This document shows, piece after piece, positions 6,869 to 59,755 of a stretch of DNA of 64,000 nucleotides. The notes under the pieces were generated by a model. That model searched no databases and was not told where the DNA came from. It saw nothing but the letters and a program-made list of their open reading frames with translations. Source of the DNA: an uncultured Bacteroidia bacterium. Lineage in GTDB: Bacteria > Bacteroidota > Bacteroidia > J057 > CALAJH01. Every line of letters starts with the position of its first letter. The stretch's first letter is position 1. The translations under genes and the position numbers were made by a program. The stretch is from the NCBI GenBank assembly GCA_937922655.1, contig CALAJH010000030.1:64107-128106 (forward strand), in the 5' to 3' direction.

Positions 6869-6912
6869 CTTTGCGCGGCGAGGAAATTTGTCGTTTGAGC
6901 GTCAATATTTTG

Positions 6913-6920
6913 TAACTTTG
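6913..6920 (+). promoter_or_regulatory. Bacteroidota -7 box (TAnnTTTG)
   Basis: TAACTTTG lies 41 nt upstream of the ATG at 6961. Confidence 0.45.
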
Positions 6921-6960
6921 CCCGGATATGTGCCGCACGACGGCGGTTTACACACACGGC

Positions 6961-9485: not shown

Positions 9486-9621
9486 TGCCGAATGATTTTA
9501 ACGTTATACAAAGTTAGCGTTTTTTTTGTAAAAATAAAAGCGGCGTACACCCCGTGTCGATTAAAAACAAACGCTTCCCGTCGGCGGAGCGATGGGGAGC
9601 GCAAGTTCGCGTGACAAGGGG

Positions 9622-14679: not shown

Positions 14680-14798
14680 TACCCAATTTTAGACTCGCGA
14701 ACGCAAAATTGGAAATTTATTTTGAATTAACATATTTTGGCGATATTTTGCCTAAAATCGTACGGCCTCCGTCCGAGGCGTAAATGCGCGGCGCCGAG

Positions 14799-17594: not shown

Positions 17595-17767
17595 CGAAAC
17601 CCAACCGATTTAAGTAGCTTGCAGATTCATGTGTATTGCAAACCGCCGTTTACCGTTTTAGGTTCGCCGCTTAATCTTAGTGTTGTATGCAATTGCTCCG
17701 CCGTTGAAGAGTGGATAAAATTGGCCGCCCGCCGAGTGGTTGCCATTTTCGACTCCGTTCTCGAAGA

Positions 17768-18040
17768 TTAGACTACCGCTTGAATGATGGTGATGTTGCC
17801 GTCTTGGTCTTCCGCCTCGATAAACATATTGAGTCGGCCTTCGTCCCAAAGCATATAGTCGCGAAACTTGGCGCTTTTGGGGTTGGGGAACGCTTGTTGG
17901 GCGAAAATCATTGCGATTTCGTCGGAAATGACCGCTCGAAACAGCTCTTCGTACATTTTCTGCTCTTCGGGGTCGTATATACGGCGAATGTTGTCGTCGT
18001 CGTTTTTTGGCGGTTTTCCGCCTTTTCCAAAGGGAAACAT
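17768..18040 (-). CDS. Small conserved hypothetical protein, paralogue 1 of a tandem pair
   Basis: 90-aa ORF with an ATG start. It aligns over about 70 aa with the ORF at 18265..18519 (shared DPEEQK, SAKFRDY.LWDEG, F.EA.D..GN.TI.Q). Confidence 0.65.
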   Translation of the reverse strand: MFPFGKGGKPPKNDDDNIRRIYDPEEQKMYEELFRAVISDEIAMIFAQQAFPNPKSAKFRDYMLWDEGRLNMFIEAEDQDGNITIIQAVV

Positions 18041-23388: not shown

Positions 23389-23470
23389 GCGGATGTGGCG
23401 GAATTGGTAGACGCGCCGGACTTAGGATCCGGTTCCTGACCGAGTATGGGTTCGAGTCCCTTCATCCGCA
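23389..23470 (+). tRNA. tRNA-Leu (anticodon TAG)
   Basis: Acceptor stem GCGGATG/CATCCGC with discriminator A. Anticodon stem CCGGA/TCCGG encloses loop CTTAGGA. There is a long variable arm and a T-loop GGTTCGAGTCC. No CCA is encoded. Confidence 0.9.
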
Positions 23471-45690: not shown

Positions 45691-45818
45691 ATCGCAAAGT
45701 TAAAACAAATCGAGGGAAATTAACACGTTTGCGGACGCTCGACGTGTATCCAAAAATTTTTCTTCACAGGATAAAATACCGAAAAAAATACCTAAAATTG
45801 CGTTGGTTTAATATTTTT

Positions 45819-46679
45819 ATGATAGAAAAATTTAATCACGCGACGGTGGTGGGCGCCGGTACGATGGGCAACGGCATTGCCCACGTTTTCGCACAGTCGG
45901 GATACACCGTGGATTTGGTCGACGTTTCCCAAAACGCACTGGACAAGGCTTGGGCCACCATTTCCGCCAATCTTGACCGGCAAATCAAAAAAGAAACCCT
46001 CAAAGCCGAAGACAAGGCCGGCATACTCGGCCGTATTCGCACGAGAACGACGATTTCGCCCTTCGACCCCCAAACGGGCATCGCCATCGAAGCGGCGACG
46101 GAAAATTACGAGCTCAAACTAAAAATTTTCCGCGAACTCGACGCCGCCGCTCCCGAAGGTTGTATCTTGGCGACCAACACCTCTTCGATATCCATCACGC
46201 AGATAGCGGCCGCCACCCGGCGTCCCGCCGCCGTGGTCGGCATGCACTTTATGAACCCCGTGCCGGTGATGAAACTCGTCGAGGTCATCAAGGGTTACGA
46301 AACGACCGACGCGGTCATGGAGCAAATCCTTGCCCTGTCGCGAGACTTGGGCAAGGAACCCGTCGCCGTCAACGATTATCCCGGTTTTGTGGCCAACCGC
46401 ATCCTCATGCCGATGATAAACGAAGCCATTTATACGCTTTACGAAGGCGTGGCCGACCGCGACGCCATCGACACCGTTATGAAATTGGGCATGGCCCATC
46501 CGATGGGTCCGCTCACTTTGGCCGATTTCATCGGTTTGGACGTGTGTTTGGCGATTTTACGCGTTCTTTACGAGGGCTTCGGCAACCCCAAATACGCCCC
46601 TTGTCCGCTTTTGGTCAATATGGTCGCCGCCGGCAATCTGGGACGCAAATCCGGGAAGGGATTCTACGAATACAAATAG
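45819..46679 (+). CDS. hbd: 3-hydroxybutyryl-CoA dehydrogenase
   Basis: VVGAGTMGNGIAHVFAQSG, ATNTSSISIT, HFMNPVPVMKLVE, GFVANRILMPMINEA, PMGPLTLADFIGLD and LGRKSGKGFYEY. I chose the ATG at 45819. Confidence 0.92.
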   Translation: MIEKFNHATVVGAGTMGNGIAHVFAQSGYTVDLVDVSQNALDKAWATISANLDRQIKKETLKAEDKAGILGRIRTRTTISPFDPQTGIAIEAATENYELKLKIFRELDAAAPEGCILATNTSSISITQIAAATRRPAAVVGMHFMNPVPVMKLVEVIKGYETTDAVMEQILALSRDLGKEPVAVNDYPGFVANRILMPMINEAIYTLYEGVADRDAIDTVMKLGMAHPMGPLTLADFIGLDVCLAILRVLYEGFGNPKYAPCPLLVNMVAAGNLGRKSGKGFYEYK

Positions 46680-46718
46680 TCGGTAGCTTTTTCCGGGCGG
46701 CAAGCGTCGTTTAAGCCT

Positions 46719-47420
46719 ATGGTGGATTGGGAGGTTTTGGAGTTGAATTACGAAGAAACGGAGTTTCGGATTTCCGGCAAGCGGGTTTTGGGGCCGTACA
46801 AGCGGGCGTTGGCGTTCTACGCGCCCGGACTTGCGCCCGTCGAGGACGAAACGGGTTGGTATCACGTTAGGCCCGACGGTACGGCCCTTTATCCCCAAAG
46901 ATACCGCAGGGCCTTCGGGTTTTATTGCGCGCGCGCGGCCGTTTTGGACGAACGGGGTTGGTTTCACATCGACCTCGACGGCAAACCCGCTTACTCCGAA
47001 CGCCGCCCGTGGGCGGGAAACTTTCAACAAGACCGATGTACCGTTCGAGACGAAAACGGCGCCTATTTCCACATCCTGCCCAACGGCGCCCGCCTTTACA
47101 ACGAAAACTATCTTTACGCCGGCGATTTTTACGACGGGCAAGCCTGCGTAAAAAACGCTCACGGACTCTTTACCCACATCGACCTTGACGGGCGAATCGT
47201 TCACGGACAATACTACCGGGAGTTGGGAGTGTTCCACAAAGGTTATGCGACGGCGGGCGACGAAACCGGTCGATTCCACATCGACAAACAAGGCCGACCG
47301 GCCTACTCGCAACGTTATCTTTTCGTTGAACCGTTTTACAACGGCGCCGCCTTCGCCGTCAATCAAGACGGAAAACAGGTCGTTGTCGCAGAAAACGGGG
47401 AGGCAAAGTGGGAATTATGA
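46719..47420 (+). CDS. WG-repeat (KWG) protein
   Basis: Repeated G(W/A/R)(Y/F)HI..DG.P.Y units are present (GWYHVRPDG, GWFHIDLDGKPAY, GAYFHILPNG, GLFTHIDLDG, GRFHIDKQGRPAY). Confidence 0.75.
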   Translation: MVDWEVLELNYEETEFRISGKRVLGPYKRALAFYAPGLAPVEDETGWYHVRPDGTALYPQRYRRAFGFYCARAAVLDERGWFHIDLDGKPAYSERRPWAGNFQQDRCTVRDENGAYFHILPNGARLYNENYLYAGDFYDGQACVKNAHGLFTHIDLDGRIVHGQYYRELGVFHKGYATAGDETGRFHIDKQGRPAYSQRYLFVEPFYNGAAFAVNQDGKQVVVAENGEAKWEL

Positions 47421-49319
47421 GTTGCCTTTTTTATCCAGCCAGTTGCGTACGGTTCTCGCCGAAACCGAACCCTCGACTCCAAACTTTTTTTTCATTTCCG
47501 TTTCCGCTTTGTCGGCCGAGCCGTATTTTTTGACGATAAGTTCGCCCAACGTCTTTAAGAATTCTTTTTCCAAAACCGTTGGCGCCGTGCCGAGGTCTAT
47601 GACAAAGGAAGGAAGTTGGCTCGGGGTATGTGCGCCGTGATATTTTTCATATTGGCTGCGGGCGTATTCGTAAGCGGATTTATATTGGAGTTGATTCTTT
47701 ATGGAGTCTTCGAATTTGTTGTAAGTGTGGTAGGCCAATGCGATTTTTTCCAAATCGCGGAAATTTCCGGGCAACATTTCCCCTTTCAACCACCGCATAA
47801 GTTCGGGGTCGTTTTGCGCAAACTCTCCTTTAAAAAGATGCTTCCACGTGTTTTTCCAATCGCTTTCACGGTCTTCGACGGTTTCTCGCAAAGGCGGAAT
47901 TTCGATAATGAATTGACTGATTCTGTCGTAAAAATCGGGTAGCAATCCCGTTTCGGGGTCGCGGAGTTGGGTTATGGTGCGGTTGGATGCGAAAATGACC
48001 AAACACTTTACGTTTTCGGTTTGGGTCGAACCCATTTTGCGCACTTTGAAGTTACCCTCGTCGTCGGTTTGCAGGGCGGTCATAAGTTTGGCCTGCACCA
48101 ATTTCGACAAATGATGCACTTCGTCCAAAAAAAGTATGCCGCCTTTTGCTATAAAAAACAAACCTTCTTTTTCTTTTTCCGCTCCCGTGTACGCCCCTTT
48201 TACATAACCGAAAAGCTCGGATTCGGCTTTGTTGTCGTTGTCGAATGCGGCACAATTGGCGTATACTATATTCGATGTTTTTTTGACTTTTTTTTCAATC
48301 AATTCGTTGGCAATTTCTCGTACCAACCGGCTTTTTCCCACTCCGCGTTCGCCTAAAACAAGAATGGTAAACGCCCTGTCGAAATTATTGATGTAAAAAG
48401 TTAAAAGGTCGTTCGCCGACTTTCGAGCCGGAGATTTTGAATTTTTGTATATTTCGCCGACCCTGCGGCGAATATCGGAAAAAAGTTTGTTGGGTACTTG
48501 TGCGACGGTAAAGTTCTTGAAACGACGGTTTTGGTTGTCGTTTTTGGAGTCGTAAGAGTTGAGAAAAAACGTTTTTTCCGGCAACAATCCCGTTTCCGAC
48601 ATGACGAAAAACGCCACTTGGATGATATAACTTCCATAACTGATGTTGATGTAAACTTCGTCTTTGGCGTCGATGTTTTTCCCGAACCAATCCAGTAAAA
48701 AATTGCATAACGCCGAATAATTTTCACGAAGGGATTTGACTCCCGACTTGGGTTTCGAGGCATTGACCAAAACCACGGCTTTCTTAAACTTTGGGGGCAA
48801 GTTGCTTTCTTTTACGAGCCATTCCGTCTGGTCTTCTATGGGAAAATAGTGAATGAAGCGCCATATTTTTTGGTTGAACTCGTCCAAAACTTTCGCCGAC
48901 TTTTTTGCCAATTCTTCGCGTACTTCGGCCAACAATCCGCTGTTTCCAACGAATCCTTCGCCTTTGTATTTTTCGTTGTAATACCATGTGCGAATGTCTT
49001 TCCACGCCTCGCGAAGTTCGGGGCTCAGCTCCTCGTCGTCCATAAACGTGGAGGATTGCGAGAAAGCAAACGACGTCGTTTCGTTGATGACTTTTTGGTC
49101 GGTGTAGAAATAGACAATCTTGTCGAAAACGGGCTTGGCATTGGGATTTTGGCCGAAATACGCTTCCATTTCCGATTGATTCACGTTCGACAGCAGTAGT
49201 TTTTCCGCGTTAAGTTCGGACGGCAGGGCCTTGGATTCTTTGGAAAAGGCCGCCAAGACGTTTTTCAAAAAGCCGACGCCGTGAGAGACGTTGTGCCATG
49301 TAATGTAATATTTCGCCAT
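47415..49319 (-). CDS. Sigma-54-dependent AAA+ transcriptional activator (bEBP) with an approximately 330-aa N-terminal RtcR/CARF-like sensor domain
   Basis: bEBP motifs are Walker A GERGVGKS, ESELFGY, sigma-54 contact loop GAYTGA, Walker B GILFLDEV, DFYDRIS, IPPLRET and LPGNFRDLE. The C-terminal tail is HTH-like (SARTVRNWL). The N-domain segment YINISYGSYIIQVAFFVMSETGLLP resembles my recollection of E. coli RtcR YLIHITTGTHVAQICWFLLAEARYLP. I chose the ATG at 49319. Confidence is 0.85 for the bEBP call and about 0.5 for the RtcR/CARF call. Confidence 0.8.
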   Translation of the reverse strand: MAKYYITWHNVSHGVGFLKNVLAAFSKESKALPSELNAEKLLLSNVNQSEMEAYFGQNPNAKPVFDKIVYFYTDQKVINETTSFAFSQSSTFMDDEELSPELREAWKDIRTWYYNEKYKGEGFVGNSGLLAEVREELAKKSAKVLDEFNQKIWRFIHYFPIEDQTEWLVKESNLPPKFKKAVVLVNASKPKSGVKSLRENYSALCNFLLDWFGKNIDAKDEVYINISYGSYIIQVAFFVMSETGLLPEKTFFLNSYDSKNDNQNRRFKNFTVAQVPNKLFSDIRRRVGEIYKNSKSPARKSANDLLTFYINNFDRAFTILVLGERGVGKSRLVREIANELIEKKVKKTSNIVYANCAAFDNDNKAESELFGYVKGAYTGAEKEKEGLFFIAKGGILFLDEVHHLSKLVQAKLMTALQTDDEGNFKVRKMGSTQTENVKCLVIFASNRTITQLRDPETGLLPDFYDRISQFIIEIPPLRETVEDRESDWKNTWKHLFKGEFAQNDPELMRWLKGEMLPGNFRDLEKIALAYHTYNKFEDSIKNQLQYKSAYEYARSQYEKYHGAHTPSQLPSFVIDLGTAPTVLEKEFLKTLGELIVKKYGSADKAETEMKKKFGVEGSVSARTVRNWLDKKGNS

Positions 49320-49351
49320 ATCGAATGCGTTTACGCCAATCAAACGCAATA

Positions 49352-49409
49352 TTCGGAAATAATTTTTTAAATTTCGGAAATTTTTTTCCTAAAAAGGAAA
49401 TTTTTTTCC
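49352..49409. promoter_or_regulatory. Three phased GGAAAT repeats, a candidate enhancer (UAS) for the adjacent bEBP
   Basis: TTCGGAAAT occurs at 49352-49360 and 49373-49381. GGAAATTTTTTTCC occurs at 49376-49389 and 49396-49409, and each copy holds the GGAAA/TTTCC inverted pair. The GGAAAT cores at 49355, 49376 and 49396 are spaced 21 and 20 bp apart. An A/T-rich tract follows. Confidence 0.45.
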
Positions 49410-49485
49410 GTTTTATTTTTTTAGCTATTTTAGTTTATCCTTTATTGTAAGGGATTTTGTATCGAAAAATTTCTTGATTTGACTT

Positions 49486-49501
49486 TGGCTTGATGATTGT
49501 A
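49486..49501 (+). promoter_or_regulatory. Candidate sigma-54 (-24/-12) promoter for the viperin operon
   Basis: TGGCTTGATGATTGTA compared with the consensus TGGCAC-N5-TTGCW. The GG spacing is correct and TGGC and TTG match, but the -12 GC is GT here. It lies 39 nt upstream of the ATG at 49540 and about 90-130 bp downstream of the repeats. Confidence 0.4.
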
Positions 49502-49539
49502 TTGGATTTGACGGCGGGACAATTAACCCGTAGCAAGCA

Positions 49540-50493
49540 ATGAAGAATTCAATAATCGTTCAAACGATGAGGGCGTTTATCGCGCAAATACGGGCGGCGG
49601 CGCTTTGGGCGTTGCACGCGTCGGTACATCGGCGCCGCCAATCCCTCCCCAAAGCGGTCAATTTCCATTTGGTCAAGCCTTGCAATTTTCGTTGCAAGTT
49701 CTGCTTTGCCACCTTTACGGACGTGGACGTTAAAATGGGACTTTCCACCGAGGATGCCGAGCGCGTCGTCGTTCGCTTGGCCGAAGTGGGCGTGGACAAA
49801 CTCACTTTCGTCGGCGGCGAGCCGACGCTCCACCCCCACCTTCATCGTCTCGTCCGTCTCGCCAAGTCCCTCGGAATGACCACCTGTGTCGTTACCAACG
49901 GCTATAAACTTAACGCCGAATACCTCGACCAATTCGACGGCGCCTTGGATTGGGTGGGATTGAGCATCGACAGCCTCAACGACGAAACCAACGTTCAATC
50001 CGGTCGTGCCTTCAAAGGCGAACGTCCCATGACCCGCGGCGACTATCTCGAAAAAGTGCGGCTTTTGCGTTCGCGCAATATACGCATAAAAATCAATACT
50101 GTCGTCCACGCCCTTAATTTCGACGAAGATATTTCCGATTTTATGAACGAAGTCAAACCCGAGCGTTGGAAGATTTTTCAAATGTTGCCCGTCGAAGGTC
50201 AAAACGACCTGCACGCAAATGATTTTATGGTATCCGACGAAAACTTTGCCAAGTACATCGGTCGTCATCGCGCCGGCGTTTTGCCGGAGATATCCATCGT
50301 TCCCGAGGACAATGACGCCATGCGCGGTTCTTACGCCATGATAGACCCGCTGGGACGCTTTTACGACGACACGCAAGGCGGCCACACTTACAGCGAACCG
50401 ATACTTGAAGCGGGCGTTCAAAACGCTTTCGAGCAAATTCAATTTTCGACGTTCAAATTTCAAAAAAGAGGAGGAGAATACTCATGGAAATAA
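49540..50493 (+). CDS. Prokaryotic viperin homologue (pVip), a radical SAM nucleotide dehydratase
   Basis: The sequence is co-linear with animal viperin: VNFHLVKPCNFRCKFCF (CxxxCxxC), TFVGGEPTL, RWKIFQMLPVEGQN (human RWKVFQCLLIEGEN), MRGSYAMIDPLGRFYDD and the C-terminal KRGGEYSWK (human KRGGKYIWSK). Confidence 0.9.
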   Translation: MKNSIIVQTMRAFIAQIRAAALWALHASVHRRRQSLPKAVNFHLVKPCNFRCKFCFATFTDVDVKMGLSTEDAERVVVRLAEVGVDKLTFVGGEPTLHPHLHRLVRLAKSLGMTTCVVTNGYKLNAEYLDQFDGALDWVGLSIDSLNDETNVQSGRAFKGERPMTRGDYLEKVRLLRSRNIRIKINTVVHALNFDEDISDFMNEVKPERWKIFQMLPVEGQNDLHANDFMVSDENFAKYIGRHRAGVLPEISIVPEDNDAMRGSYAMIDPLGRFYDDTQGGHTYSEPILEAGVQNAFEQIQFSTFKFQKRGGEYSWK

Positions 50494-51029
50494 ATCGCAT
50501 CGTATTGAGCGGTTGCGCCGGTTCGGGCAAAACAACGGTGGGCAAGGCGTTGGCCGAGCGTATGGGATACCGCTTTCTTTCCGCCGGCGAATTGGCGCGC
50601 CAACACGCCGAACGTCTCGGATATTCCATCCAGGAACTGCAAAAACATTTGGCAAACCACCCCGACTACGACCGGGAATTGGACGCCTACCTAACCCGGT
50701 GGGGCATGGAAAACGAAGGTTACGTTTTGGATTATCGTTTGGGTTTTTATTTTTTGCCCGCCGCCTTCAGCATTTATCTTGACGTATCCGCCGAGGTTGC
50801 CGCGCAAAGAATCGCCCGCCAAAACCGAACTACGGAATTCGCAAACGTCGTCGAACCCGCCGTCGTCTTGAAAAGCCTTTCGCAACGAAACACGCAAATG
50901 AAAAATCGTTTTCTCGACCTTTATCACGTCGATTTCACTCAAACCGACCATTACAATCTCGTCGTCCAAACCGACCGATTGAACGTCGTTGAAACCGTAA
51001 ACTTCATCGCCGATCGTCTCAAATTCTAA
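50484..51029 (+). CDS. Cytidylate-kinase-like P-loop nucleotide kinase
   Basis: The 181-aa product has the P-loop LSGCAGSGKTTVGKALAERMGY at its N-terminus and is the size of short CMP/AAA-type kinases. Its ATG overlaps the viperin 3' end by 10 nt. A GGAGGAG Shine-Dalgarno-like motif precedes it at 50470-50476. Confidence 0.75.
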   Translation: MEINRIVLSGCAGSGKTTVGKALAERMGYRFLSAGELARQHAERLGYSIQELQKHLANHPDYDRELDAYLTRWGMENEGYVLDYRLGFYFLPAAFSIYLDVSAEVAAQRIARQNRTTEFANVVEPAVVLKSLSQRNTQMKNRFLDLYHVDFTQTDHYNLVVQTDRLNVVETVNFIADRLKF

Positions 51030-51076
51030 TTCAAGCAAATTCTCTTCCGCGTCCGATTGTCTTTTTCCAATCATTG

Positions 51077-51367
51077 ATGATTTCAGGATTTTATCCCACC
51101 GAACATTTTTTGTATCGATGTTGGGAACGCGGGATTAGCCACGAAACACTTCTTAAAGTTTTGCGTCGAGTGAAAGTTCTCAAAGGCAGATACGTCGTAT
51201 TGGCAACGGCGGGTGAACTAAGCAAATTGGGATGCAAGTTGCCGTCCGAAGCCGAAGGAAGCCCGTTGTGCATCGTTGCCGACCATCGTCGTCTGCAAAC
51301 CGCCTATTGGCTTTGCGAACCCGACAAAAGAGTCAAAACCTATCAATTAATAGTACAAGTGATATAA
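51077..51367 (+). CDS. Small hypothetical protein, DUF4258-like
   Basis: 96-aa ORF in the 346-nt gap between the kinase and GT genes. PTEHFLYRCWERGISHETLLKVL ... LCIVADHRRLQTAY resembles the H..R..eRGI....v....viTvy pattern I associate with DUF4258. This is unverified. Confidence 0.5.
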   Translation: MISGFYPTEHFLYRCWERGISHETLLKVLRRVKVLKGRYVVLATAGELSKLGCKLPSEAEGSPLCIVADHRRLQTAYWLCEPDKRVKTYQLIVQVI

Positions 51368-51375
51368 AACCCAAA

Positions 51376-52632
51376 ATGAAAATCTTAAAAGTCATCCACG
51401 GATATCCGCCCTTGTACCAAGCGGGAAGCGAGGTGTACAGCCAAAGTTTGGTGAACGAACTTTTGCGTCAAGGCCACGAGGTGCGGGTGTTTACGCGCGA
51501 GGAGAATCCGTTTGCCCCGGATTTTTCGGTACGAGAAAACGGTATATTGAACGTCGTCAATATCCCTCGGGAAAAAGACGGTTATCGTCATGCCGTCATG
51601 GACCGCGTTTTTTCCCAACTGGTCGATGGTTTCCGGCCCGACGTCGCCCATATCGGTCATCTCAACCACCTTTCGACGGGGATTCCGGAGGTGTTGAAGG
51701 CGTCGGGCGTACCGACGGTTTTCACCCTTCACGACTTTTGGTTGATGTGTCCGCGAGGACAATTTCTACAAACCAACTTCGGCCAAAACGAGTATTACCG
51801 GCCGTGTGAACGACAAGAACACGGCAAATGCGCCCGCGAATGTTATCGTGGTTTTTGGAACGAATCCGAGAACGACCCCGAAAGCGAAGCTTATTGGACG
51901 CGCTGGGTTGAAAGGCGGATGTCCGAAACCCGCCGCGTCGCCGAACTCACCGACCTTTTCATCGCTCCGTCGCGTCGGTTGCGCGAACGCTTTATCAACG
52001 ACTTCGGGGTGCCGGAAAATAAAATCGTGTATTTGGACTACGGCTTTCCGATGGACTACCTCACGACTTTGGAAACCGAATCCCCTCGCCAACGCTTTAC
52101 TTTCGGTTATATCGGCACCCATATTCCCGCCAAGGGCGTCAATATGCTTATCGAAGCCTTTTCCCGTATGAACGGTCGGTCGGAACTTTTGATTTGGGGG
52201 CGGGAAGCGGCGCAAAGCACCGCCGCCCTCAAACGCATGGCCCATGGATTGAACGTCCGGTTCATGGGCGAGTACGTCAATCGCAACATCGCGACGGAGG
52301 TCATGAGTCGGATTGACTGCATTGTCGTTCCTTCGATATGGCAGGAAAATTCGCCGCTCGTCATCCACGAGGCGCAAATATGCGGCAAACCCGTCATTAC
52401 CGCGGACGTTGGCGGCATGGCCGAATACGTCGAACATCTGACCAACGGCTTGCTTTTTCGGCACCGCGACCCCCAAGACCTCTACGAAAAAATGCTCTTT
52501 GCCGTCGAAAACCCCGAAACGATGAACCGTTTGGGCCGGCGCGGCTACCTTTACGACAAAGCGTCGCTCAATATCTCCGAACACGTTAAGGCGATTGTAA
52601 ATATTTACCATTCTCTTATTCAACAACAATGA
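51376..52632 (+). CDS. GT4-family (GT-B fold) glycosyltransferase
   Basis: MKILKVIHGYPP...GSEVY...L...GHEV.VFT at the N-terminus. The C-terminal VVPSIWQENSPLVIHEAQICGKPVITADVGGMAEYVEHLTNGLLF carries the E-x7-E region. I chose the ATG at 51376, because the 51232 extension overlaps the small ORF. Confidence 0.85.
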   Translation: MKILKVIHGYPPLYQAGSEVYSQSLVNELLRQGHEVRVFTREENPFAPDFSVRENGILNVVNIPREKDGYRHAVMDRVFSQLVDGFRPDVAHIGHLNHLSTGIPEVLKASGVPTVFTLHDFWLMCPRGQFLQTNFGQNEYYRPCERQEHGKCARECYRGFWNESENDPESEAYWTRWVERRMSETRRVAELTDLFIAPSRRLRERFINDFGVPENKIVYLDYGFPMDYLTTLETESPRQRFTFGYIGTHIPAKGVNMLIEAFSRMNGRSELLIWGREAAQSTAALKRMAHGLNVRFMGEYVNRNIATEVMSRIDCIVVPSIWQENSPLVIHEAQICGKPVITADVGGMAEYVEHLTNGLLFRHRDPQDLYEKMLFAVENPETMNRLGRRGYLYDKASLNISEHVKAIVNIYHSLIQQQ

Positions 52633-53642
52633 AACTTTTTAGAGTAACGTTGGACACCAACCCCGAAGACTGCAACCTCGGTTGCATCATGTGTGAAGAG
52701 CACAGTCCGTACAGCGACTACATCCCTCGTCTCTACCAAGAGACGGGGGTGAAACGCCGCCGCATGCCCTTTGAATGGGTGGAAAAAATCGTAAAGGAGG
52801 CGGCCGAACTTGGCGCCAAAGAAATCATCCCCTCGACCATGGGCGAACCCTTGCTGTACAAAGGCTTCGAACGCCTTTTCCCTTTGGCCCAAAAATACGG
52901 TTTGAAGGTCAATCTTACGACCAACGGCACTTTTCCCAAGAAAACTGTTGAAGAATGGGCGCACGTCATCGCCCCGGCTTCATCGGACGTGAAAATTTCT
53001 TGGAACGGCGCCACCAAGCAAACCGCGGAAAACGTCATGCTTGGCTTGGACTTCGAACGCGCCGTCGAAAACGTTCGAACCTTTGTCGCCGTCCGCAACC
53101 GGTATCCCGAGGCGTGTCGCGTAACGTTTCAACTTACCTTCCTGCAATCGAACATGCACGAATTGGCGGATATCGTCAAACTGGCGGCCGAATTGGGCGT
53201 CGATAGGGTCAAGGGTCATCATTTGTGGGCGCATTTTGAGGAAATCGAACCCCTTTCGATGAAGTATTCTCCCGAATCCATCGCCCTGTGGAACGAATAC
53301 GTCGCCCAAGCCTTCGACGCCCGCGAACGCTACCTCAAAGCCGACGGCCAAAAAGTCGTCCTTGAAAACATTTGGCCCCTTCAAGCCGAAAGAACCGTCC
53401 TTGAATCCGACGAATGCCCCTTTTTGGATAAAGAATTGTGGGTTTCGGCTACGGGAAAAATTTCCCCTTGCTGCGCCCCCGACAAACTCCGCGACACCCT
53501 CGGCGACTTCGGCAACATTCAATCCACGAGTCTGTCCGAAGTCCTGCAAAGTCCCGCGTACAGAAATCTAGTGGAAAACTACAAACAACATCCGTTGTGC
53601 CAAACCTGCAATATGAGAAGACCCCATGATTACGCAAAGTAA
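52629..53642 (+). CDS. Radical SAM enzyme with a C-terminal SPASM/twitch-type Cys cluster
   Basis: CNLGCIMC (CxxxCxxC) at residues 15-22 and GEPLLY. The C-terminal cysteines are CPF....W....G.ISPCC and CQTCNMR. An ATGA overlap links it to the GT gene. Confidence 0.8.
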   Translation: MKLFRVTLDTNPEDCNLGCIMCEEHSPYSDYIPRLYQETGVKRRRMPFEWVEKIVKEAAELGAKEIIPSTMGEPLLYKGFERLFPLAQKYGLKVNLTTNGTFPKKTVEEWAHVIAPASSDVKISWNGATKQTAENVMLGLDFERAVENVRTFVAVRNRYPEACRVTFQLTFLQSNMHELADIVKLAAELGVDRVKGHHLWAHFEEIEPLSMKYSPESIALWNEYVAQAFDARERYLKADGQKVVLENIWPLQAERTVLESDECPFLDKELWVSATGKISPCCAPDKLRDTLGDFGNIQSTSLSEVLQSPAYRNLVENYKQHPLCQTCNMRRPHDYAK

Positions 53643-55026
53643 ATTTTTGGAAAAACTGCGGCCGGGGCTTGAACAAACACCCGGAGTTAAGGCCGCGTTC
53701 GTCTTTGGTTCGTACGCCCGAGGCGAAGCCACCCAACAGTCCGATTTGGACGTGGCCTTGTGGGTCGAGACGCGTTTCGACCCACAAGCCGCCGCAAAAA
53801 CTTGGCGCTCGGCGCTCGGCGTTTTCGCCGTCCCCGTCGAAACCAAATCGAAAATCGCCCTTTTCGCTCCCGAACTCCGTATCGAAATCGCTTATTCCCA
53901 TCGTTTGGAAGATTTTGCACGCGATTACATCGGTTCGGAAATTCCCTCTCCCGAAGGCACGGTCGTTTTTGACCGAACGAGCGAAGTGTTGCCGTTTTTG
54001 CGTTCGCTCAACCCCGAAATCCGCATGGACGGCAAAGACAAAGACGTAATCGACGCCGTTCAAAAGTTTGTTTACAATTTTGAATGCGCCTCTTCGTATC
54101 ATCGACGTTCCGACGCCTACCGCTTTTATTACACTTACAACATCGCGCTCAACGAGGCCGTTCGCTTGGATTATTGGGCGCACGGTTGGAAAAAATTTTC
54201 TTACCTGCCCAAACGCATCAACGTCCTCTATTCCCTCGACGAACTCCAACGTTTCTATGAGCTCAACGGCACGCTTTTTTTGCGCGAAACCAACACCAAA
54301 AAACGAAAACTGCTCGATTATTTTTACCACGCAATTGAGAATTTGCAAGCCGTCGACCCCGTTTACGCCACTGAAATCAAAGAATTTTGCGAGTCGGTTT
54401 ACCGTCGGGACTACTTTTGGAACCTCAGGGACGTGGCGCAAAACAACGACGGAATTCGCCCCGGCGTCGTGTTTCGCTCTTCGTCGATGACTCCGTTTCA
54501 AAACGAGGCGCTCTTTGAGGAACTGATTCAAAACGTTACGACGTTCATCGACCTTCGCGCCGATGACGAAATAGAAAAAGAACCCTATTCCGACCCAATC
54601 CTTCGCCGTATTCGTTGGGTAAATTGTCCGCTCGACCCCTCGAAACAAAGCGAACACTTCCGCAATCACGAGCAGTACGGCACCAATTCCGAAATCGCTT
54701 ATCGTTTTTTCGCCGTCGAATGCGGACGGCAAATCGCGACGGCCATGCGTACCATCATTGACGCCGAAAAAGCCGTACTTATTCATTGTGCGGCGGGCAA
54801 AGACAGAACGGGTTGCGTGGTTTCGCTTTTGCATTTGCTCTCGGGCGCCTCGAAAGAAATCGTCTACGCCGACTACGCCGCCTCCGAAATGGATGTCGAA
54901 TTATCGACGCTCAACCAATTTTTGAACGTCGTCGAAGCTTGCGGCGGCGTGCGCGACTATCTCTTGTACGCGGGAATGAACACCGATGAAATCGAATTAT
55001 TAAAAACCAAAATATGCAAAAATTAA
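53626..55026 (+). CDS. Fusion protein: N-terminal minimal nucleotidyltransferase (pol-beta superfamily) plus a C-terminal Cys-based tyrosine/dual-specificity phosphatase domain
   Basis: The NTase motif is FVFGSYARGEATQQSDLDVALWV (GS...DxD). The central region is helical. The C-terminal part shows FRSSSM...IDLRADDE and the CX5R P-loop HCAAGKDRTG. It overlaps the upstream gene by 17 nt. Confidence 0.75.
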   Translation: MITQSKFLEKLRPGLEQTPGVKAAFVFGSYARGEATQQSDLDVALWVETRFDPQAAAKTWRSALGVFAVPVETKSKIALFAPELRIEIAYSHRLEDFARDYIGSEIPSPEGTVVFDRTSEVLPFLRSLNPEIRMDGKDKDVIDAVQKFVYNFECASSYHRRSDAYRFYYTYNIALNEAVRLDYWAHGWKKFSYLPKRINVLYSLDELQRFYELNGTLFLRETNTKKRKLLDYFYHAIENLQAVDPVYATEIKEFCESVYRRDYFWNLRDVAQNNDGIRPGVVFRSSSMTPFQNEALFEELIQNVTTFIDLRADDEIEKEPYSDPILRRIRWVNCPLDPSKQSEHFRNHEQYGTNSEIAYRFFAVECGRQIATAMRTIIDAEKAVLIHCAAGKDRTGCVVSLLHLLSGASKEIVYADYAASEMDVELSTLNQFLNVVEACGGVRDYLLYAGMNTDEIELLKTKICKN

Positions 55027-56708
55027 TAAAAAACAGTACGGCTTTGCCGTACGTGGGTGTGGGCTCGGGTCGCGACCCGGGCCTGCCCACCCTCGGCATT
55101 TACTCCGTTCCCGACAGGGGCGAATACAAGTGGCCCGGATTCACCCACGACCATTCCCTTTGCCTGATGGAAAACGGCAAAATCGTCACCTACCTTCACC
55201 TCGAGCGCTACAGCCGCCGCAAATACGACAATCGTTTGCACTTGTATTTGGACGAATTGGCGCCGCGGCTCGAATTGCCCGAACGTTTCGACGTCGTTTC
55301 GGTCAATTCTTTTGTCGGCACGGCGTTTTTGTCTCCTACGGGACGTTATTGGTTCGATTCCGCCACGCCTACGCGTCCCGTTGTCGGGCTTCGCGCCGGC
55401 ATGGGCCATTGGAACGGCCAACAAGCCTATTTTCACGGCATCGACCATGAATTGGCGCATGTGTTCAGCGTAACGCCTTTTTTCCCCGACATACATGAAA
55501 ATTCGCTGTTCGTGCATTTCGACGGCGGCGCCACCCACGGCAATTTTTCCGCCTATCTTTACCGAAACGGCAAACTCAATAAACTCGAATGCCACTGGGA
55601 ATTAAGCCGACTTTCCAAGTGGTTCAACGACAACGCCTTGACGTTCAAAATGCTCGGCGCCGAACCGGGAGAACACTGTTCGGTGCCGGGTAAACTCATG
55701 GGTTACGCCGCCTTTGGAACCCCCGACGACGAAATCGCTCAATGGCTCGTCGAAAACGACTATTTTCGCGACATTTGGACCGACCCTTCGCCCTTTTTCC
55801 ATTCGGCCCGCCGACGCTTCGGGTTTGCCGCAACCGACCTTGATTTGCGCGACGCCTTCGTCCAAAACGTCGCCGCCACCTTTCAATGGATGTTTGAAAA
55901 CGAAGCGACAAAAAAAATCCTCGAACTTCAGGCAAAAACCGGGGCCGAATATTTGTATTATGCGGGCGGTTGCGCCCTCAACATCGTTACCAACACCAAA
56001 ATCGTCGAATCGGGAGCGTTTCGGGACGTGTTTATTCCTCCGTGTTGCAACGATTCGGGATTGAGCGTCGGCGCGGCGGCGTTCGTCGAATGGCAAAAAC
56101 ACGGAAAACTCTACGAGCACGGGCCGTATTTAAACAATTTTGGAACGATGGAATGCGCCGTCGAACCCGAAACGGTACAAGCGGCCGCGGAAACGATAAT
56201 GGCGGGTGGAATCGTGGGCGTTTGCAACGGTGCGGGCGAGGCCGGCCCCCGCGCCCTCGGCAACCGCTCGCTTCTGGCCCGTGCCGACGACCCCCGTTTG
56301 GCTTACAAAATCAGCGTCGAATGCAAAAAACGCGAATGGTATCGGCCCGTAGCGCCCGTGGTTTTGTCAAAAAACGCCGAACGTTTTACCGATACGCCCG
56401 TTAAACATTCTCTTGCCCGGTTCATGTTGTTGGACTATTGGGTTCCCGAAGAAAAAAGGGAAGGCATTACGGGTGCGGTTCACGTCAACGGCACCGCACG
56501 CATGCAAACCTTTCAATCCCGCGACGAAAACCCCTTTGTCTTCGAGCTGTTGAGTCTATTGGAAACCCAAGGCGTGTACGCTTTAATTAATACGTCGTTC
56601 AACGCCGCCGGCGAACCGATTGTACACACGTCCGAACAGGCGTTGGCCTCCCAACGTTCGATGCGGCTCGACGGCTTGGTTCTAAATCAAAAGTGGATAA
56701 AAAAGTAA
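55014..56708 (+). CDS. Carbamoyltransferase of the NodU/CmcH/TobZ family
   Basis: HDHSLCLMENGKIVTYLHLERYSRRKYD in the N-terminal ASKHA-like region, YYAGGCALNIVTN, GPRALGNRSLLA and C-terminal-domain motifs NTSFNAAGEPIV. It overlaps the upstream gene by 13 nt. Confidence 0.85.
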   Translation: MQKLIKNSTALPYVGVGSGRDPGLPTLGIYSVPDRGEYKWPGFTHDHSLCLMENGKIVTYLHLERYSRRKYDNRLHLYLDELAPRLELPERFDVVSVNSFVGTAFLSPTGRYWFDSATPTRPVVGLRAGMGHWNGQQAYFHGIDHELAHVFSVTPFFPDIHENSLFVHFDGGATHGNFSAYLYRNGKLNKLECHWELSRLSKWFNDNALTFKMLGAEPGEHCSVPGKLMGYAAFGTPDDEIAQWLVENDYFRDIWTDPSPFFHSARRRFGFAATDLDLRDAFVQNVAATFQWMFENEATKKILELQAKTGAEYLYYAGGCALNIVTNTKIVESGAFRDVFIPPCCNDSGLSVGAAAFVEWQKHGKLYEHGPYLNNFGTMECAVEPETVQAAAETIMAGGIVGVCNGAGEAGPRALGNRSLLARADDPRLAYKISVECKKREWYRPVAPVVLSKNAERFTDTPVKHSLARFMLLDYWVPEEKREGITGAVHVNGTARMQTFQSRDENPFVFELLSLLETQGVYALINTSFNAAGEPIVHTSEQALASQRSMRLDGLVLNQKWIKK

Positions 56709-56948: not shown

Positions 56949-56968
56949 TAATGAAAATTAACATTGAC

Positions 56969-59755
56969 ATGAAATTGGTTTATACGTTTTGGTTGTGTTT
57001 GCAATCGACGGCGTGGGCACAGGCGGAATACGGCCCGTCCACACCGCCCGGGCGTTTGTACAACCTCAACCACGGTCCCGTATATTTTCTTCCCCCCGTC
57101 AACGTGGATTCCTTACGCGCGGCCGACGAAATCGAGCAGGGGCAAAATCTTCCGTTTCGTTTCGGTTACGCCATAAAAACGAGCTTCGATATCGTCGACG
57201 ACGGCACGGAAGCGATATTGCCCGACGGTTCGTCGCTTTGGCGCATGACCGTTTATGCACCGGGAGCTTATTCGTTGAACTTTGTTTTCGACGCTTTTTT
57301 CATGCCCGAAGGCGGCGAACTTTACATTTACTCGCCGGAGCACGATTTTTATCGCGGCGCCTTTACGCACAAATCCACCCGTTCGGACAGCGCGTTTGCC
57401 ACCGCGCCCCTACCCGGCGACCGCGTCGTTTTTGAGTATCGCCGTTTTCCCGGTTCCCCGCCCGCCAAACTCAAACTTGGGACTACCGTTTACGGTTACA
57501 AAGACGTTTTTTTCAAAAACACTTCGGGATACGGCGATTCGGGCTCGTGCAACGTGAACGTCAATTGTCCCGCGGGCGCAAATTGGCAAAATCAAAAAAA
57601 AGGCGTGGCGATGATTTTGACCTCGGGCGGCACGCGCATCTGTTCGGGGTCGTTGATAAACAACGTGCGTCAGGACGGCAAGCCTTACTTTTTGACCGCC
57701 CAACATTGTTTGGATTCGGGTTCCAACAACTGGATTTTTATGTTTAATTACGAAAGTCCGGGTTGTACAAATCAAAACGGGCCGACCAACCAAACGCTGC
57801 AAGGCTGCGTTACCCGCGCCTCATGGTCGTCGGGGGACTTCGCCCTCCTCGAACTCAATCAACGACCGCAAAGTTTTTACAACGTATATTACAACGGTTG
57901 GAACAGGACGACATCGGCGCCCGCGGCGCCCGTCGGCATCCATCACCCTTCGGGCGACGTCAAGAAAATAAGTTTCGACAATCAGTCCGCCGTTTCGGGG
58001 ACGTACACAAGTTTGAGCAACGGGCATTGGCGTGTGGTGTGGGATACGGGAACGACCGAAGGCGGCTCGTCGGGGTCGCCGCTGTTCAATTCGTCGGGAC
58101 AGATAGTCGGCGACCTTTCCGGAGGATTGGCCGCCTGTTCAAGACCCAACGAAAGCGATTATTACGGAAAATTCAGCGTCAATTGGTCGGGAAACAACAC
58201 CAATTCCACCCGCCTGAGCAATTGGCTCGACCCCGACAATACGGGCGTTACGTCGCTCAACGGCGCCTACATCACCGAATGCAATTTGTCGGCAAGCATC
58301 GGAGCGGACAAAAATTCGATTTGCCGCCAGCAAGAAAGCGCCGTTTTGACGGCAAGCGCGACGGGCGCCAACGGTTCGGTAAGTTATTCTTGGGCGCCGA
58401 GCACGGGCTTGAACGCGACGGTCGGCGCCGTCGTAACCGCCAATCCCACCGTCAATACCGTTTACACCGTCACCGCCACCGACGGCGCCAATTGTAGCGC
58501 CACGGCTACGTTTACGCTGACGGTGATAAGTCCGCCGACGGCCACGCTTTCCACCGCCGACGGCAAAACGCGTTATTGCCGCCACGACGCGTCCGTCGCT
58601 TTAAACGCGGACGTTTCCGGGGGAAGTTTTTCGGGCCCCGGCGTTTCCAACGGGACTTTTAATCCAAACACGGCCGGCGTTGGAACCCACGTCGTCAATT
58701 ATTTCGGTGGAACGCTGCCTCCTTACACTTTTACCAACGACCTCGTTAGGAGCATCGCCGACAATACCTGCTCGGCCGGTACGGGGCTTACGTCCACAAT
58801 TTCGGTCTCGGGATTGCCCACGGTTTTGACGCAGGCAATGGCCGCCAAGATGTTCGTTGCTTTGAACATCAACCATACATGGGTAAGGGATTTGGTCGTT
58901 TTTTTGCGTTCTCCATCCAACGCGCGCACGCTGTTGTTGGTTTATCGCGTTGGTGGACAGGGTGCGGTGAACATGGTCAATACCGTGCTTTCCGACGATG
59001 GGACGATACCGATATGGGAGGGGGTGGCGCCGTTTACCGGCACGTACCGCCCCGACGGTTACCTTGAAACCCAATGCGGTCTGACTTCGAACATTGCCAC
59101 GTTTTCCGCGTTTGCGGGCGTCAATCCCAACGGAACGTGGACGTTGAGAATTTTCGACGCGGCCGCCGACGATACCGGGACGTTGCAAAATTGGACGTTG
59201 GGATTCGGAAACGAAAATCCTTGCGCCGCTTCGGGAACGCTGACGTTGCAGGTGGTCGCCAATCCTACGGTAAGCGCATCGTCTTCGCCGTCGTTGCCCG
59301 GCCAAAACACGGGAAGCGTAACGGCGGTCGGCGCCGGCGGAAACGCTCCTTACGCGTATTCGCTCAACGGCGGCGTTTTTCAGTCCGATGCAACGTTTAA
59401 CGGCCTTGCGTCGGGAAGCTATGTCGTTACCGTCCGAGACGCCAACGATTGTAGCGCAAGCGTCATAGTATCGGTGCAGGAATCGCAGGCCGTTTGGCCG
59501 GGCGATGCGGACAACAACGGGACCGTTACGCTTACCGACTATTATTTTACCGCCGCCGCTTACAATCGAACGGGGCCGGCAAGGGCGTTGCAAGGAATAA
59601 CGTGGCAGGCTTACGCCGCTCCCGCGTTGTGGGCGACGAGCCAGTTGATTCAAGGCGCGACGGTCAACCACATGTATACCGACGCAAACGGCGACGGCGT
59701 GGTTAATCTCTTCGATTTGGCCGCGACGGTACTTAATCGGGGCCGTACTCGTTAG
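56969..59755 (+). CDS. Secreted S1-family (lysyl-endopeptidase-like) serine protease with Ig-like modules, a proprotein-convertase-type P domain, a SprB repeat and a dockerin-like C-terminal domain
   Basis: Signal peptide MKLVYTFWLCLQSTAWAQA. Catalytic motifs are SGSLINNVRQDGKPYFLTAQHC (His) and TTEGGSSGSPLF (Ser). The P-domain pattern is LNINHTWVRDLVVFLRSPSNARTLL...NGTWTLRIFDAAADDTGTLQNWTLGFG. The SprB repeat shows GGNAPYAYSLNGGVFQ. The C-terminus aligns with that of the CUB protein. Confidence 0.85.
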   Translation: MKLVYTFWLCLQSTAWAQAEYGPSTPPGRLYNLNHGPVYFLPPVNVDSLRAADEIEQGQNLPFRFGYAIKTSFDIVDDGTEAILPDGSSLWRMTVYAPGAYSLNFVFDAFFMPEGGELYIYSPEHDFYRGAFTHKSTRSDSAFATAPLPGDRVVFEYRRFPGSPPAKLKLGTTVYGYKDVFFKNTSGYGDSGSCNVNVNCPAGANWQNQKKGVAMILTSGGTRICSGSLINNVRQDGKPYFLTAQHCLDSGSNNWIFMFNYESPGCTNQNGPTNQTLQGCVTRASWSSGDFALLELNQRPQSFYNVYYNGWNRTTSAPAAPVGIHHPSGDVKKISFDNQSAVSGTYTSLSNGHWRVVWDTGTTEGGSSGSPLFNSSGQIVGDLSGGLAACSRPNESDYYGKFSVNWSGNNTNSTRLSNWLDPDNTGVTSLNGAYITECNLSASIGADKNSICRQQESAVLTASATGANGSVSYSWAPSTGLNATVGAVVTANPTVNTVYTVTATDGANCSATATFTLTVISPPTATLSTADGKTRYCRHDASVALNADVSGGSFSGPGVSNGTFNPNTAGVGTHVVNYFGGTLPPYTFTNDLVRSIADNTCSAGTGLTSTISVSGLPTVLTQAMAAKMFVALNINHTWVRDLVVFLRSPSNARTLLLVYRVGGQGAVNMVNTVLSDDGTIPIWEGVAPFTGTYRPDGYLETQCGLTSNIATFSAFAGVNPNGTWTLRIFDAAADDTGTLQNWTLGFGNENPCAASGTLTLQVVANPTVSASSSPSLPGQNTGSVTAVGAGGNAPYAYSLNGGVFQSDATFNGLASGSYVVTVRDANDCSASVIVSVQESQAVWPGDADNNGTVTLTDYYFTAAAYNRTGPARALQGITWQAYAAPALWATSQLIQGATVNHMYTDANGDGVVNLFDLAATVLNRGRTR
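59492..59752 (+). other. Dockerin-like C-terminal domain, copy 2
   Basis: VWPGDADNNGTVTLTDYYF...GPARALQG..W......W........GATVN....DANGDGVVNLFDLAATVLNRG. By eye roughly half the positions are identical to 28382..28639. Confidence 0.6.

Follow-up and report, generated by a model that had tools for sequence, protein, structure and literature searches.

A viperin-kinase pair at the head of a conserved Bacteroidota operon for putative glycoside-type chemistry

Prokaryotic viperins (pVips) are said to have been described by Bernheim et al. in 2021, and to our knowledge little has been learned about their regulation in native hosts. Here we analyse a pVip encoded in a 64,000-nucleotide stretch of contig CALAJH010000030.1 from an uncultured Bacteroidia bacterium (the whole stretch is referred to as the window), where it opens a seven-gene operon together with a viperin-associated nucleoside monophosphate (NMP) kinase. 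The linkage of viperins to kinases has been described (bioRxiv 10.1101/2023.09.13.557418). The window pair resembles that known system in that, judged by sequence, both proteins are full and typical members of the pVip and pVip-kinase families, and in that their genes share 10 nt, in the manner of the usual two-gene arrangement. In contrast to that system, the pair stands behind a candidate sigma-54 promoter with a divergent gene for an RtcR-like activator, and the five genes that follow it belong to no described pVip system. We did not find such an operon context for a pVip in the literature searched, nor any description of the operon in the databases and literature covered, which included work on viperins, on glycosyltransferase family 4 (GT4) and radical SAM conflict systems and on enhancer-binding proteins.

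RtcR is a CARF-AAA+-HTH activator of sigma-54-dependent stress operons. The window shares with the RtcR-RtcBA operons a divergent sigma-54 activator with RtcR models as its best specific matches, and a layout with paired upstream repeats and a -24/-12-like element; it differs in having no RtcA or RtcB gene and in RtcR scores that lie far under the family cutoff. The operon body also has relatives in the Undecim Cluster (WD0611-WD0621) of Wolbachia phage WO, a highly expressed and widely conserved gene set whose function has been predicted from annotation only and which has moved laterally between endosymbionts, Cardinium of the Bacteroidota among them (PMC9203015).

We suggest, with a probability of roughly 0.6, that two separable units share one operon that is probably sigma-54-dependent: a canonical generator of 3'-deoxy-3',4'-didehydro nucleoside triphosphates (ddhNTPs) and a glycoside-making or glycoside-modifying pathway. 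By homology, the pVip and the NMP kinase, which form the first unit, would make ddhNTP chain terminators. The window would then provide a natural example of a pVip controlled by an inducible, enhancer-dependent promoter that has its own sensor-regulator, and co-transcribed with a second pathway. The features of the locus are as follows.

46719..47420, plus strand: WG-repeat protein, 233 aa, on the far side of the regulator gene; invariant module partner
47415..49349, minus strand: sigma-54 enhancer-binding protein, 644 aa, divergent; N-terminal sensor region of ~320 aa, AAA+ domain and C-terminal region
49376..49409, plus strand: paired repeats GGAAATTTTTTTCC (copies at 49376-49389 and 49396-49409), candidate activator-binding sites
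49486..49500, plus strand: candidate -24/-12 promoter of the sigma-54 type, TGGCTTGATGATTGT, 40 nt 5' of the pVip ATG
49540..50493, plus strand: pVip, first operon gene
50484..51029, plus strand: viperin-associated NMP kinase, 10-nt overlap with pVip
51077..51367, plus strand: small open reading frame (ORF), 96 aa, ATG start; belongs to the variable operon head
51376..52632, plus strand: GT4 (GT-B) glycosyltransferase, by Pfam
52629..53642, plus strand: radical SAM enzyme with a SPASM/twitch-type C-terminal domain, by Pfam
53626..55026, plus strand: fusion of a Pol-beta nucleotidyltransferase (NTase) and a Y_phosphatase3 phosphatase
55014..56708, plus strand: TobZ/NodU-type O-carbamoyltransferase (CarbT), an optional tailoring enzyme of the module

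The seven genes run head to tail on the plus strand from 49540 to 56708. A preliminary description of this DNA had placed the last four on a common strand with overlaps of 4, 17 and 13 nt and had identified them as a GT4, a radical SAM enzyme, an NTase-phosphatase and a carbamoyltransferase; the ORF coordinates agree exactly, Pfam supports each identity, and the junction overlaps confirm a tight operon. The 346-nt interval between the kinase and GT4 genes is not empty, as it contains the conserved 96-aa ORF and leaves true spacers of 47 and 8 nt. Consensus and terminator scans of this interval gave no convincing internal promoter or terminator. We rejected as an internal promoter a match to TGGGATGCAAGTTGC at 51228, which falls within the small ORF and is not significant (about 0.06 expected by chance per 400-nt interval). 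A search of Rfam gave no riboswitch, and no RNA family of another kind, within or close to the operon. The catalytic motifs are intact in the window and invariant in the family alignments: CxxxCxxC in both radical SAM enzymes, E-x7-E in the GT4, and GS...DxD and HCx5R in the fusion.

Searches with the NTase-phosphatase fusion, the most distinctive protein of the operon, returned 864 protein clusters and 55 loci in species-representative Bacteroidota genomes (single loci are given L numbers where they must be told apart). The GT4, radical SAM, NTase-phosphatase and WG-repeat genes are collinear in 46 of these loci, and contig ends truncate the remaining nine. A viperin is present in just three of the complete 46. 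The four genes constitute an autonomous, widespread and conserved Bacteroidota module to which viperin is an optional add-on, and they define a conserved, uncharacterised operon of five to seven genes in dozens of Bacteroidota species. Among its cultivable carriers are Thermonema rossianum DSM 10300, Capnocytophaga granulosa ATCC 51502, Algibacter pectinivorans DSM 25730, Winogradskyella ludwigii and Flavobacterium sp. 28A. Homologues of the WG-repeat protein, 43-51% identical to it, lie directly 3' of the module in essentially every related locus. The slot between the fusion and the WG-repeat gene holds a CarbT in about ten loci (L001, L050-L057, L064) and a PF00891 O-methyltransferase in 22; otherwise the WG-repeat gene comes next. 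One of these loci, L064, has the same seven components as the window, with the WG-repeat gene at the end and no pVip. A histidine phosphatase is found besides the fusion in L052 and L056, and without the fusion in L063. On a viral contig (L146, IMG/VR UViG_2917530833, 9026-9652) the phosphatase half of the fusion occurs alone, followed by an O-methyltransferase and a WG-repeat protein.

The nearest relative of the window, a metagenomic contig (L001), has the same flanks and is 78-79% identical in DNA sequence over window positions 45000-47455 and 51376-56701. Its gene order is regulator, small ORF, GT4, radical SAM enzyme, NTase-phosphatase and CarbT, with pVip and kinase absent. Identity collapses in the stretch from the 3' end of the regulator gene up to, exactly, the GT4 start codon (window 47455-51376 versus L001 5382-7754), and the regulators are only 40% identical despite the similarity of the flanks. 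The GC content is 0.45-0.46 over 47-50 kb of the window and about 0.52-0.53 in the operon body. The break in identity and the dip in GC content together indicate that the operon head, consisting of regulator, promoter and small genes and here also the pVip-kinase pair, acts as an exchangeable cassette on a conserved body.

This distribution bears directly on the proposal, made in the preliminary description, that the four enzymes are an appendage of the viperin. Spelled out for the pVip-bearing versions of the operon, the ddh-nucleotide or ddh-nucleoside would be dephosphorylated by the phosphatase domain, glycosylated by the GT4, re-nucleotidylylated and O-carbamoylated to give a complex antimetabolite, or else ddhNTP would be detoxified for the host. 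The tight operon is in keeping with it, as are the position of pVip, which is always immediately 5' of the GT4 gene or the small ORF, and the 4-nt overlap of the kinase and GT4 genes in L140. The NTase, phosphatase and CarbT or O-methyltransferase are moreover the kinds of enzyme that act on the hydroxyls and phosphates of nucleosides and sugars, and radical SAM enzymes, glycosyltransferases, phosphatases and carbamoyltransferases occur in nucleoside-antibiotic pathways such as those for tunicamycin, polyoxin and nikkomycin. However, the module enzymes must have another substrate, because viperin is missing from 43 of the 46 complete modules and from L001, and a genome without the toxin would not retain a self-protection arm. 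Nor are the module proteins from loci with pVip distinct in the tree from those of their pVip-less neighbours. We therefore consider the elaboration of ddhNTP by the module quite improbable, and its self-protection variant finds no support; ddhNTP is not the general substrate of the module.

The viperin side leads to the same point. The window pVip matches the PADLOC pVip model at 4.6e-90 and the NCBIfam family viperin_w_prok (NF038283) at 3.1e-93, with 312 bits against a cutoff of 180, and its translation carries the radical SAM core CxxxCxxC as CNFRCKFC. The kinase matches the PADLOC pVip-kinase fusion model at 1.3e-40, VakA at 2.1e-20 and the NCBIfam archaeal-type (d)CMP kinase at 2.1e-25. 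Both are typical members of the stand-alone pVip and pVip-kinase families, a point against the appendage proposal. More than 100 pVips from other contexts, many of them kinase-fused, are 46-53% identical to the window pVip, a higher identity than that of the pVips in other module loci (39-44%). Among 80 metagenomic loci with the closest pVips, 43 of which are at least 6 kb long, the module is absent from 78, and two touch it. The GT4-radical SAM-WG core in turn occurs in a sugar cluster (L063) and in phage WO. The dependence of module on viperin that the preliminary description had suggested is contradicted in both directions, since the module occurs without viperin and viperin without the module.

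The adjacency of viperin and module that it had noted is nevertheless real and recurrent. A pVip lies between promoter and GT4 gene in five further loci, in four gene orders:

L012 and L013: small ORF, pVip, GT4
L017: kinase, small ORF, pVip, fused GT4-radical SAM
L140: pVip, kinase, GT4, with a 4-nt kinase/GT4 overlap
L079: pVip, small ORF, after which the contig ends

The pVips of module loci fall into at least three lineages: those of L012/L013, L017 and L140 are mutually 53-58% identical, and those of the window and L079 each stand apart at 40-47%. In a neighbour-joining tree of the radical SAM proteins the pVip-bearing loci appear at three places, and the window is sister to the pVip-less L001. 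That pVip has been captured recurrently in one slot of an uncommon operon speaks for selection, with co-expression as its simplest object. We suggest that the pVip-kinase pair is an optional cassette of the variable operon head; placed between promoter and GT4, both units would respond to the same signal.

The two units could also be together by co-location only. The operon head would then be a recombination hotspot, the pVip-kinase pair one of several unrelated cargos, and the module a housekeeping or niche pathway for a glycan or natural product with no role in phage defence; the finding would reduce to an unusual insertion site for an ordinary pVip. The head is indeed hypervariable, as the cassette swap relative to L001 shows, and it has received other cargo too, among it small DUF-like proteins and peptides of the N/K-rich and SMP-like kinds. 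The core occurs as well in the plain, regulator-less sugar cluster L063 and in the accessory island of an endosymbiont phage. Yet random insertion would give far fewer cases than are seen, with one and the same slot of this rare operon occupied by pVips of at least three lineages and in four gene orders, and the position directly behind the promoter implies co-expression. Several module loci moreover lie amid McrBC, pAgo, Gabija and DISARM-type genes and integrases. On balance we judge co-location without a functional link to be unlikely.

What the second unit does is best approached through its enzymes, none of which belongs to a named family and for which PADLOC has no model. The GT4 matches Pfam Glyco_trans_1_4 at 2.2e-26 and Glyco_transf_4 at 3.1e-21 and shows the E-x7-E motif as ENSPLVIHE in translation. 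It is 53-62% identical to its counterparts in most related Bacteroidota loci and 38% in the most divergent (L052, L056). In the window the GT4 and radical SAM genes are separate and overlap; in L003-L006 and L017 they are fused into a protein of ~765 aa, as they also are in phage WO. Among the best solved or curated relatives of the GT4 are sucrose-phosphate synthase (6kih) and MshA (3c4q; TIGR03449), at E values of about 1e-8 to 1e-14. Both recall two-step syntheses that pair a GT4 with a phosphatase (MshA/MshA2 in mycothiol synthesis, and sucrose-phosphate synthase with its phosphatase), and a phosphatase of the cysteine or histidine type is likewise a constant companion of the module. In contrast to true members of those systems, however, the window GT4 shows a weak likeness, restricted to the donor-binding half and far under the family cutoffs, so that the parallel is one of analogy and not of membership. 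We also considered the GT4-conflict family (PF20706), since GT4 domains have been proposed as conflict-system effectors (PMC8195603); the match (3.1e-8, 33.5 bits against a cutoff of 26) falls well behind the ~1e-26 of the generic GT4 models, the architectures of those systems differ from that of the window operon, and the identity was rejected. That paper and a preprint on phage DNA glycosylation concern different systems and were set aside as descriptions of the operon.

The radical SAM enzyme (Pfam Radical_SAM 4.5e-14; SPASM, PF13186, 2.4e-12) is the best-conserved protein of the module, with 60-85% identity to its best 120 database matches and 55-69% in most of the related loci; its family comprises 2,618 protein clusters. 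In the alignment C15, C19, C22, C263, C281 and C282 are invariant and C324 and C327 nearly so; the conserved C-terminal cysteines are fewer than in a full seven-cysteine SPASM domain, and one or two auxiliary Fe-S clusters both fit. The AlphaFold2 (AF2) model (pLDDT 90.5) gives generic fold matches to SkfB, anSME, SuiB, PqqE, DesII, viperin and MoaA, of which SkfB (twitch) and anSME (SPASM) are the closest.

The NTase-phosphatase fusion combines a LinB/ANT-like O-nucleotidyltransferase domain (residues ~1-265; Pfam Polbeta NTase 1.5e-8) with a PtpB/Siw14-like cysteine phosphatase domain (~265-466; Y_phosphatase3 3e-30). Its invariant residues are G28, S29, D40 and D42 in the first and H387, C388 and R394 in the second. 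With the AF2 model (pLDDT 92), Foldseek aligned the N half to LinB (2e-9, TMt 0.72), ANT(6)-Ib and ANT(4'), and the C half to Mtb PtpB, a C. difficile protein tyrosine phosphatase and the inositol-pyrophosphate phosphatases AtPFA-DSP1 and Siw14. CarbT contains both Carbam_trans_N (PF02543, 1.9e-24) and Carbam_trans_C (PF16861, 4.6e-46), and its best solved relatives in the PDB are TobZ (3.9e-35), NovN and GdmN; it is not a NodU orthologue, because the NodU model gives 128 bits against a cutoff of 1000. Enzymes of antibiotic and natural-product chemistry (LinB/Lnu, ANT(6) and ANT(4'); TobZ, NovN and GdmN) are therefore nearest to the fold of the window NTase and to the sequence of CarbT, respectively, and the tailoring-type character that the preliminary description had assigned to these proteins holds, since they are of a type that acts on small molecules, sugars or nucleosides. 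The differences are nonetheless substantial: structural-alignment identity of the NTase to LinB/ANT enzymes is 12-16% and the window NTase forms one protein with a cysteine phosphatase, the alignment with TobZ covers only the 280 C-terminal residues of CarbT, and, unlike aminoglycoside and lincosamide pathways, the locus has no genes for a 2-deoxystreptamine or lincosamide core. We know of no resistance enzyme in which an NTase is fused to a cysteine phosphatase.

The window WG-repeat protein gives a faint Pfam match to WG_beta_rep (E 0.035). The small ORF has homologues of ~93-100 aa directly 5' of GT4 in many loci and is 41% identical to its L001 counterpart; the family alignment shows the shared motifs HF..W.R.I...L.KVL and ..TAYW. 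It had no match in Pfam (E<=1), NCBIfam or, with a 19-sequence profile, the PDB, and a resemblance to DUF4258 or toxin-like proteins, seen by eye only, is not claimed. In other loci the head contains very hydrophilic ORFs of 44-52 aa (L019, L025, L031, L033, L040 and L054, ~100-200 nt 5' of GT4; also L030 and the tail in L062) with the motif ADIKNPNKGT.G.N.T(Y/F)DKNQGNRGKQLNPN and a conserved N-x-T; L044, L045 and L047 have a 47-aa ORF of the KGSFAARAQSAA type instead. We rejected the N/K-rich 44-aa peptides as core substrates for glycosylation or for a pathway to peptides that are synthesised ribosomally and modified post-translationally (RiPPs), as they occur in only about nine loci and are absent from the window.

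From these homologies a sequence of reactions can be proposed. The GT4 would transfer a sugar from an NDP-sugar to an acceptor, and the radical SAM enzyme, which several relatives and phage WO encode as one protein with GT4, would transform the resulting glycoside. The LinB/ANT-like domain would nucleotidylylate a hydroxyl and the PtpB/Siw14-like domain remove a phosphate; a free hydroxyl would then be capped, by O-carbamoylation here and by O-methylation in other loci. The WG-repeat protein, which is methyltransferase-fused in phage WO, may serve as a binding or adaptor subunit. The alternation of CarbT with the PF00891 enzyme, together with the likenesses to TobZ/NovN/GdmN, LinB/ANT and PtpB/Siw14, points to small-molecule chemistry of the glycoside or sugar type.

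An alternative is that the module modifies macromolecules. These could be RNA or DNA ends in an RNA-damage response of the RtcR type, or else the small ORF products and N/K-rich peptides, on which the SPASM enzyme and GT4 would act as on RiPP-like or glycosylated substrates. The regulator is RtcR-like, the best fold matches of the radical SAM enzyme are maturases of RiPPs and proteins (SkfB, anSME, SuiB, PqqE), the small ORFs or peptides always precede GT4, and the conflict-system proposal for GT4 domains points in the same direction. The small ORFs and peptides vary in family, however, and are missing from many loci, and so they are not obligatory substrates. The PF00891 O-methyltransferase, the TobZ/NovN/GdmN-like CarbT and the LinB/ANT-like NTase are classic small-molecule enzymes, and the relatives in L063 and phage WO lie amid NDP-sugar enzymes and an ABC exporter. 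We thus regard a macromolecular substrate as very improbable.

The relatives in phage WO can be specified. When phage genomes were searched with the radical SAM protein, Wolbachia phage WO was the only match (two records). The window GT4 and radical SAM proteins are 48% and 50% identical to the halves of UC3 (WD0613; MN180251 QHJ75529), a GT-radical SAM fusion. UC4 consists of an N-terminal half to which the WG-repeat protein is 45% identical and a C-terminal O-methyltransferase half. In the phage region UC3 comes after GlmU-like and epimerase genes, and PhyH and ABC transporter genes follow UC4. These UC3 and UC4 genes, homologues of those for the window GT4, radical SAM and WG-repeat proteins at 45-50% identity, lie at 8678-12669 of L145 (MN180251.1, Wolbachia phage WO), and L147-L150 have them also. 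Further likenesses are that the CarbT slot is filled by an O-methyltransferase in 22 Bacteroidota loci, and that L063, a Bacteroidota variant, again has PhyH and an epimerase as partners; there the GT4-radical SAM...WG core lies amid an epimerase-radical SAM fusion, a methyltransferase, a second glycosyltransferase, PhyH, a histidine phosphatase and a DegT aminotransferase, with no regulator.

The window shares this core but is not a member of the Undecim Cluster, because nine of the eleven cluster genes are absent: tblastn of the window module proteins against the WO region matched UC3 and UC4 only, and ORF and Pfam analysis of 45.7-60.3 kb revealed no equivalent of any of the other nine, whether within the operon or next to it. 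The window lacks the GlmU-like, epimerase, PhyH, ABC transporter and two lyase/aminotransferase genes as well as the G3P transporter, UDP-glucose dehydrogenase and DMT permease, whereas phage WO lacks the NTase-phosphatase, CarbT, small ORF, sigma-54 activator and viperin. In contrast to UC4, the window WG-repeat protein stands alone, relocated to 46719-47420, and the slot holds CarbT and no O-methyltransferase. The papers searched make no link between the Bacteroidota operon and the phage WO island. A free-living Bacteroidota homologue of the UC3-UC4 core may be easier to study experimentally than the phage island.

The regulator is a sigma-54 activator by Pfam (Sigma54_activat, PF00158, 8.7e-35) and matches the PADLOC model RtcR_PspF1--CARF_AAA_HTH at 1.6e-69; against NCBIfam RtcR it scores 5.7e-39 with 134 bits, far under the 650-bit family cutoff. 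Its translation shows a Walker A motif, GERGVGKS, and a GAFTGA-type loop, GAYTGA (ELFGYVKGAYTGA). The N-terminal part has a weak match to the RtcR/CARF family PF06956 (E 0.0087, residues 207-262), the alignment to the PADLOC CARF_AAA_HTH profile begins only at profile position 84, and residues ~1-220 match nothing. The sequence GGAAATTTTTTTCC has only two exact copies in the 64-kb window, 20 nt apart and both in the divergent intergenic region; with one mismatch permitted, three are found against 0.44 expected. These repeats are candidate sites to which the activator would bind. The downstream element TGGCTTGATGATTGT has the canonical GG-N10-G spacing and fits seven of ten consensus positions, although a single match of such quality is not significant alone. 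TGGCA(C/T)-type elements lie at the equivalent relative position in about ten loci with full-length regulator homologues, and a near-perfect TGGCATTTTATTTGC is found 5' of pVip in L140. We infer that the operon is probably sigma-54-dependent and driven by the divergent RtcR-like activator.

Some module loci have defence-type flanks (McrBC, nSTAND3, PIF1-TOTE, a DEAD/MZB helicase, an integrase), and among 111 flanking ORFs of L001-L027 there are strong matches to pAgo, Gabija GajA, PDC-M16A, a type I methyltransferase, Hachiman/DISARM/BREX-type helicases and GmrSD. Three things, namely the shared regulon, recurrent pVip capture and nearby defence genes at several loci, lead us to suggest that the operon responds to phage infection or to a related stress. 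If the repeated independent capture of viperin does place the pathway in an antiviral or stress response, this would be a new kind of small-molecule-based immunity. A stronger version would see in the operon a hitherto unrecognised Bacteroidota pathway for inducible chemical defence, with the Undecim Cluster among its relatives, in which RtcR-like activation leads to a capped glycoside or nucleoside-like antimetabolite and the pVip-kinase pair supplies a second warhead, joined by selection again and again to one infection-responsive transcript. We hold this version to be possible but doubtful.

Several observations weigh against the reading of two co-regulated units, or against parts of it. 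The sigma-54 promoter call is a weak match, at seven of ten positions, and the element at -12 is degenerate in the majority of loci. In place of the full-length regulator, most of the related loci encode a short AAA+ protein (~310 aa), and they have no recognisable -24/-12 element. The TGG[CT]A[CT] hexamer was not significantly enriched in the head regions, and because its count there equals the background the promoter assignment rests on position and on the loci with full-length regulators. The radical SAM enzyme had no sequence match in the PDB and its fold search was uninformative on the substrate, and a macromolecular target of the module (protein, RNA or DNA) would be in keeping with L062, which has a superfamily 1 (SF1) helicase in the place of the NTase-phosphatase and so couples GT4 and the radical SAM enzyme with a helicase. 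Housekeeping genes flank many of the module loci and also surround the operon in the window (an FG-GAP/ASPIC protein, a 3-hydroxyacyl-CoA dehydrogenase and a secreted protease), which makes a defence role of the module tentative. In PADLOC-DB 2.0 the GT4, CarbT and the 233-aa WG-repeat protein had no match at all, and the radical SAM and NTase proteins gave only weak generic ones (pVip 1.2e-7; MNT-type PDC-S09 ~1e-7). These housekeeping surroundings and missing PADLOC matches are also what co-location alone would lead one to expect. Finally, the pVips of L012, L013, L017 and L140 are closest to one another, which would fit long residence of one lineage in the module and so possibly a coupling tighter than co-regulation. 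Such residence also favours elaboration of the viperin product, and in these four loci a ddh-nucleoside might even be built into the product.

In further respects the module loci vary as follows. The short AAA+ proteins (~310 aa, minus strand, ~6300-7300; L003-L006, L014-L016 and most others) show only weak Sigma54_activ_2 similarity, in contrast to the 600-644-aa regulators. At 3113-10020 of L062 are encoded a full-length regulator, a small ORF with an N/K-rich tail, the GT4, a 1063-aa SF1 (AAA_11/AAA_12) helicase, a 275-aa protein and the radical SAM enzyme; this locus lacks the NTase-phosphatase and the WG-repeat protein, a hint that some versions may act on nucleic acids. We considered carriage by mobile elements and rejected it: the radical SAM protein is encoded on five of 2.9 million IMG/VR contigs, four WO-like and one Bacteroidota prophage-like, and a full-length NTase-phosphatase homologue was found on no plasmid (the radical SAM protein was not searched for in plasmids), so that the module, almost never present on viral contigs or plasmids, is essentially chromosomal.

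Elsewhere in the window, a 934-aa protein encoded directly 3' of the operon (56951-59755) combines a trypsin-like peptidase with a proprotein-convertase P domain and has a weak SprB-repeat match below the cutoff; it is of a Bacteroidota-typical kind and is not kept beside the module elsewhere. The window contains one tRNA gene (23389-23470). Positions 13000-18000 show a strong strand bias, with AT skew reaching -0.31 and GC skew of +0.15, and include long minus-strand ORFs at 12898-14679 and 14799-17594.

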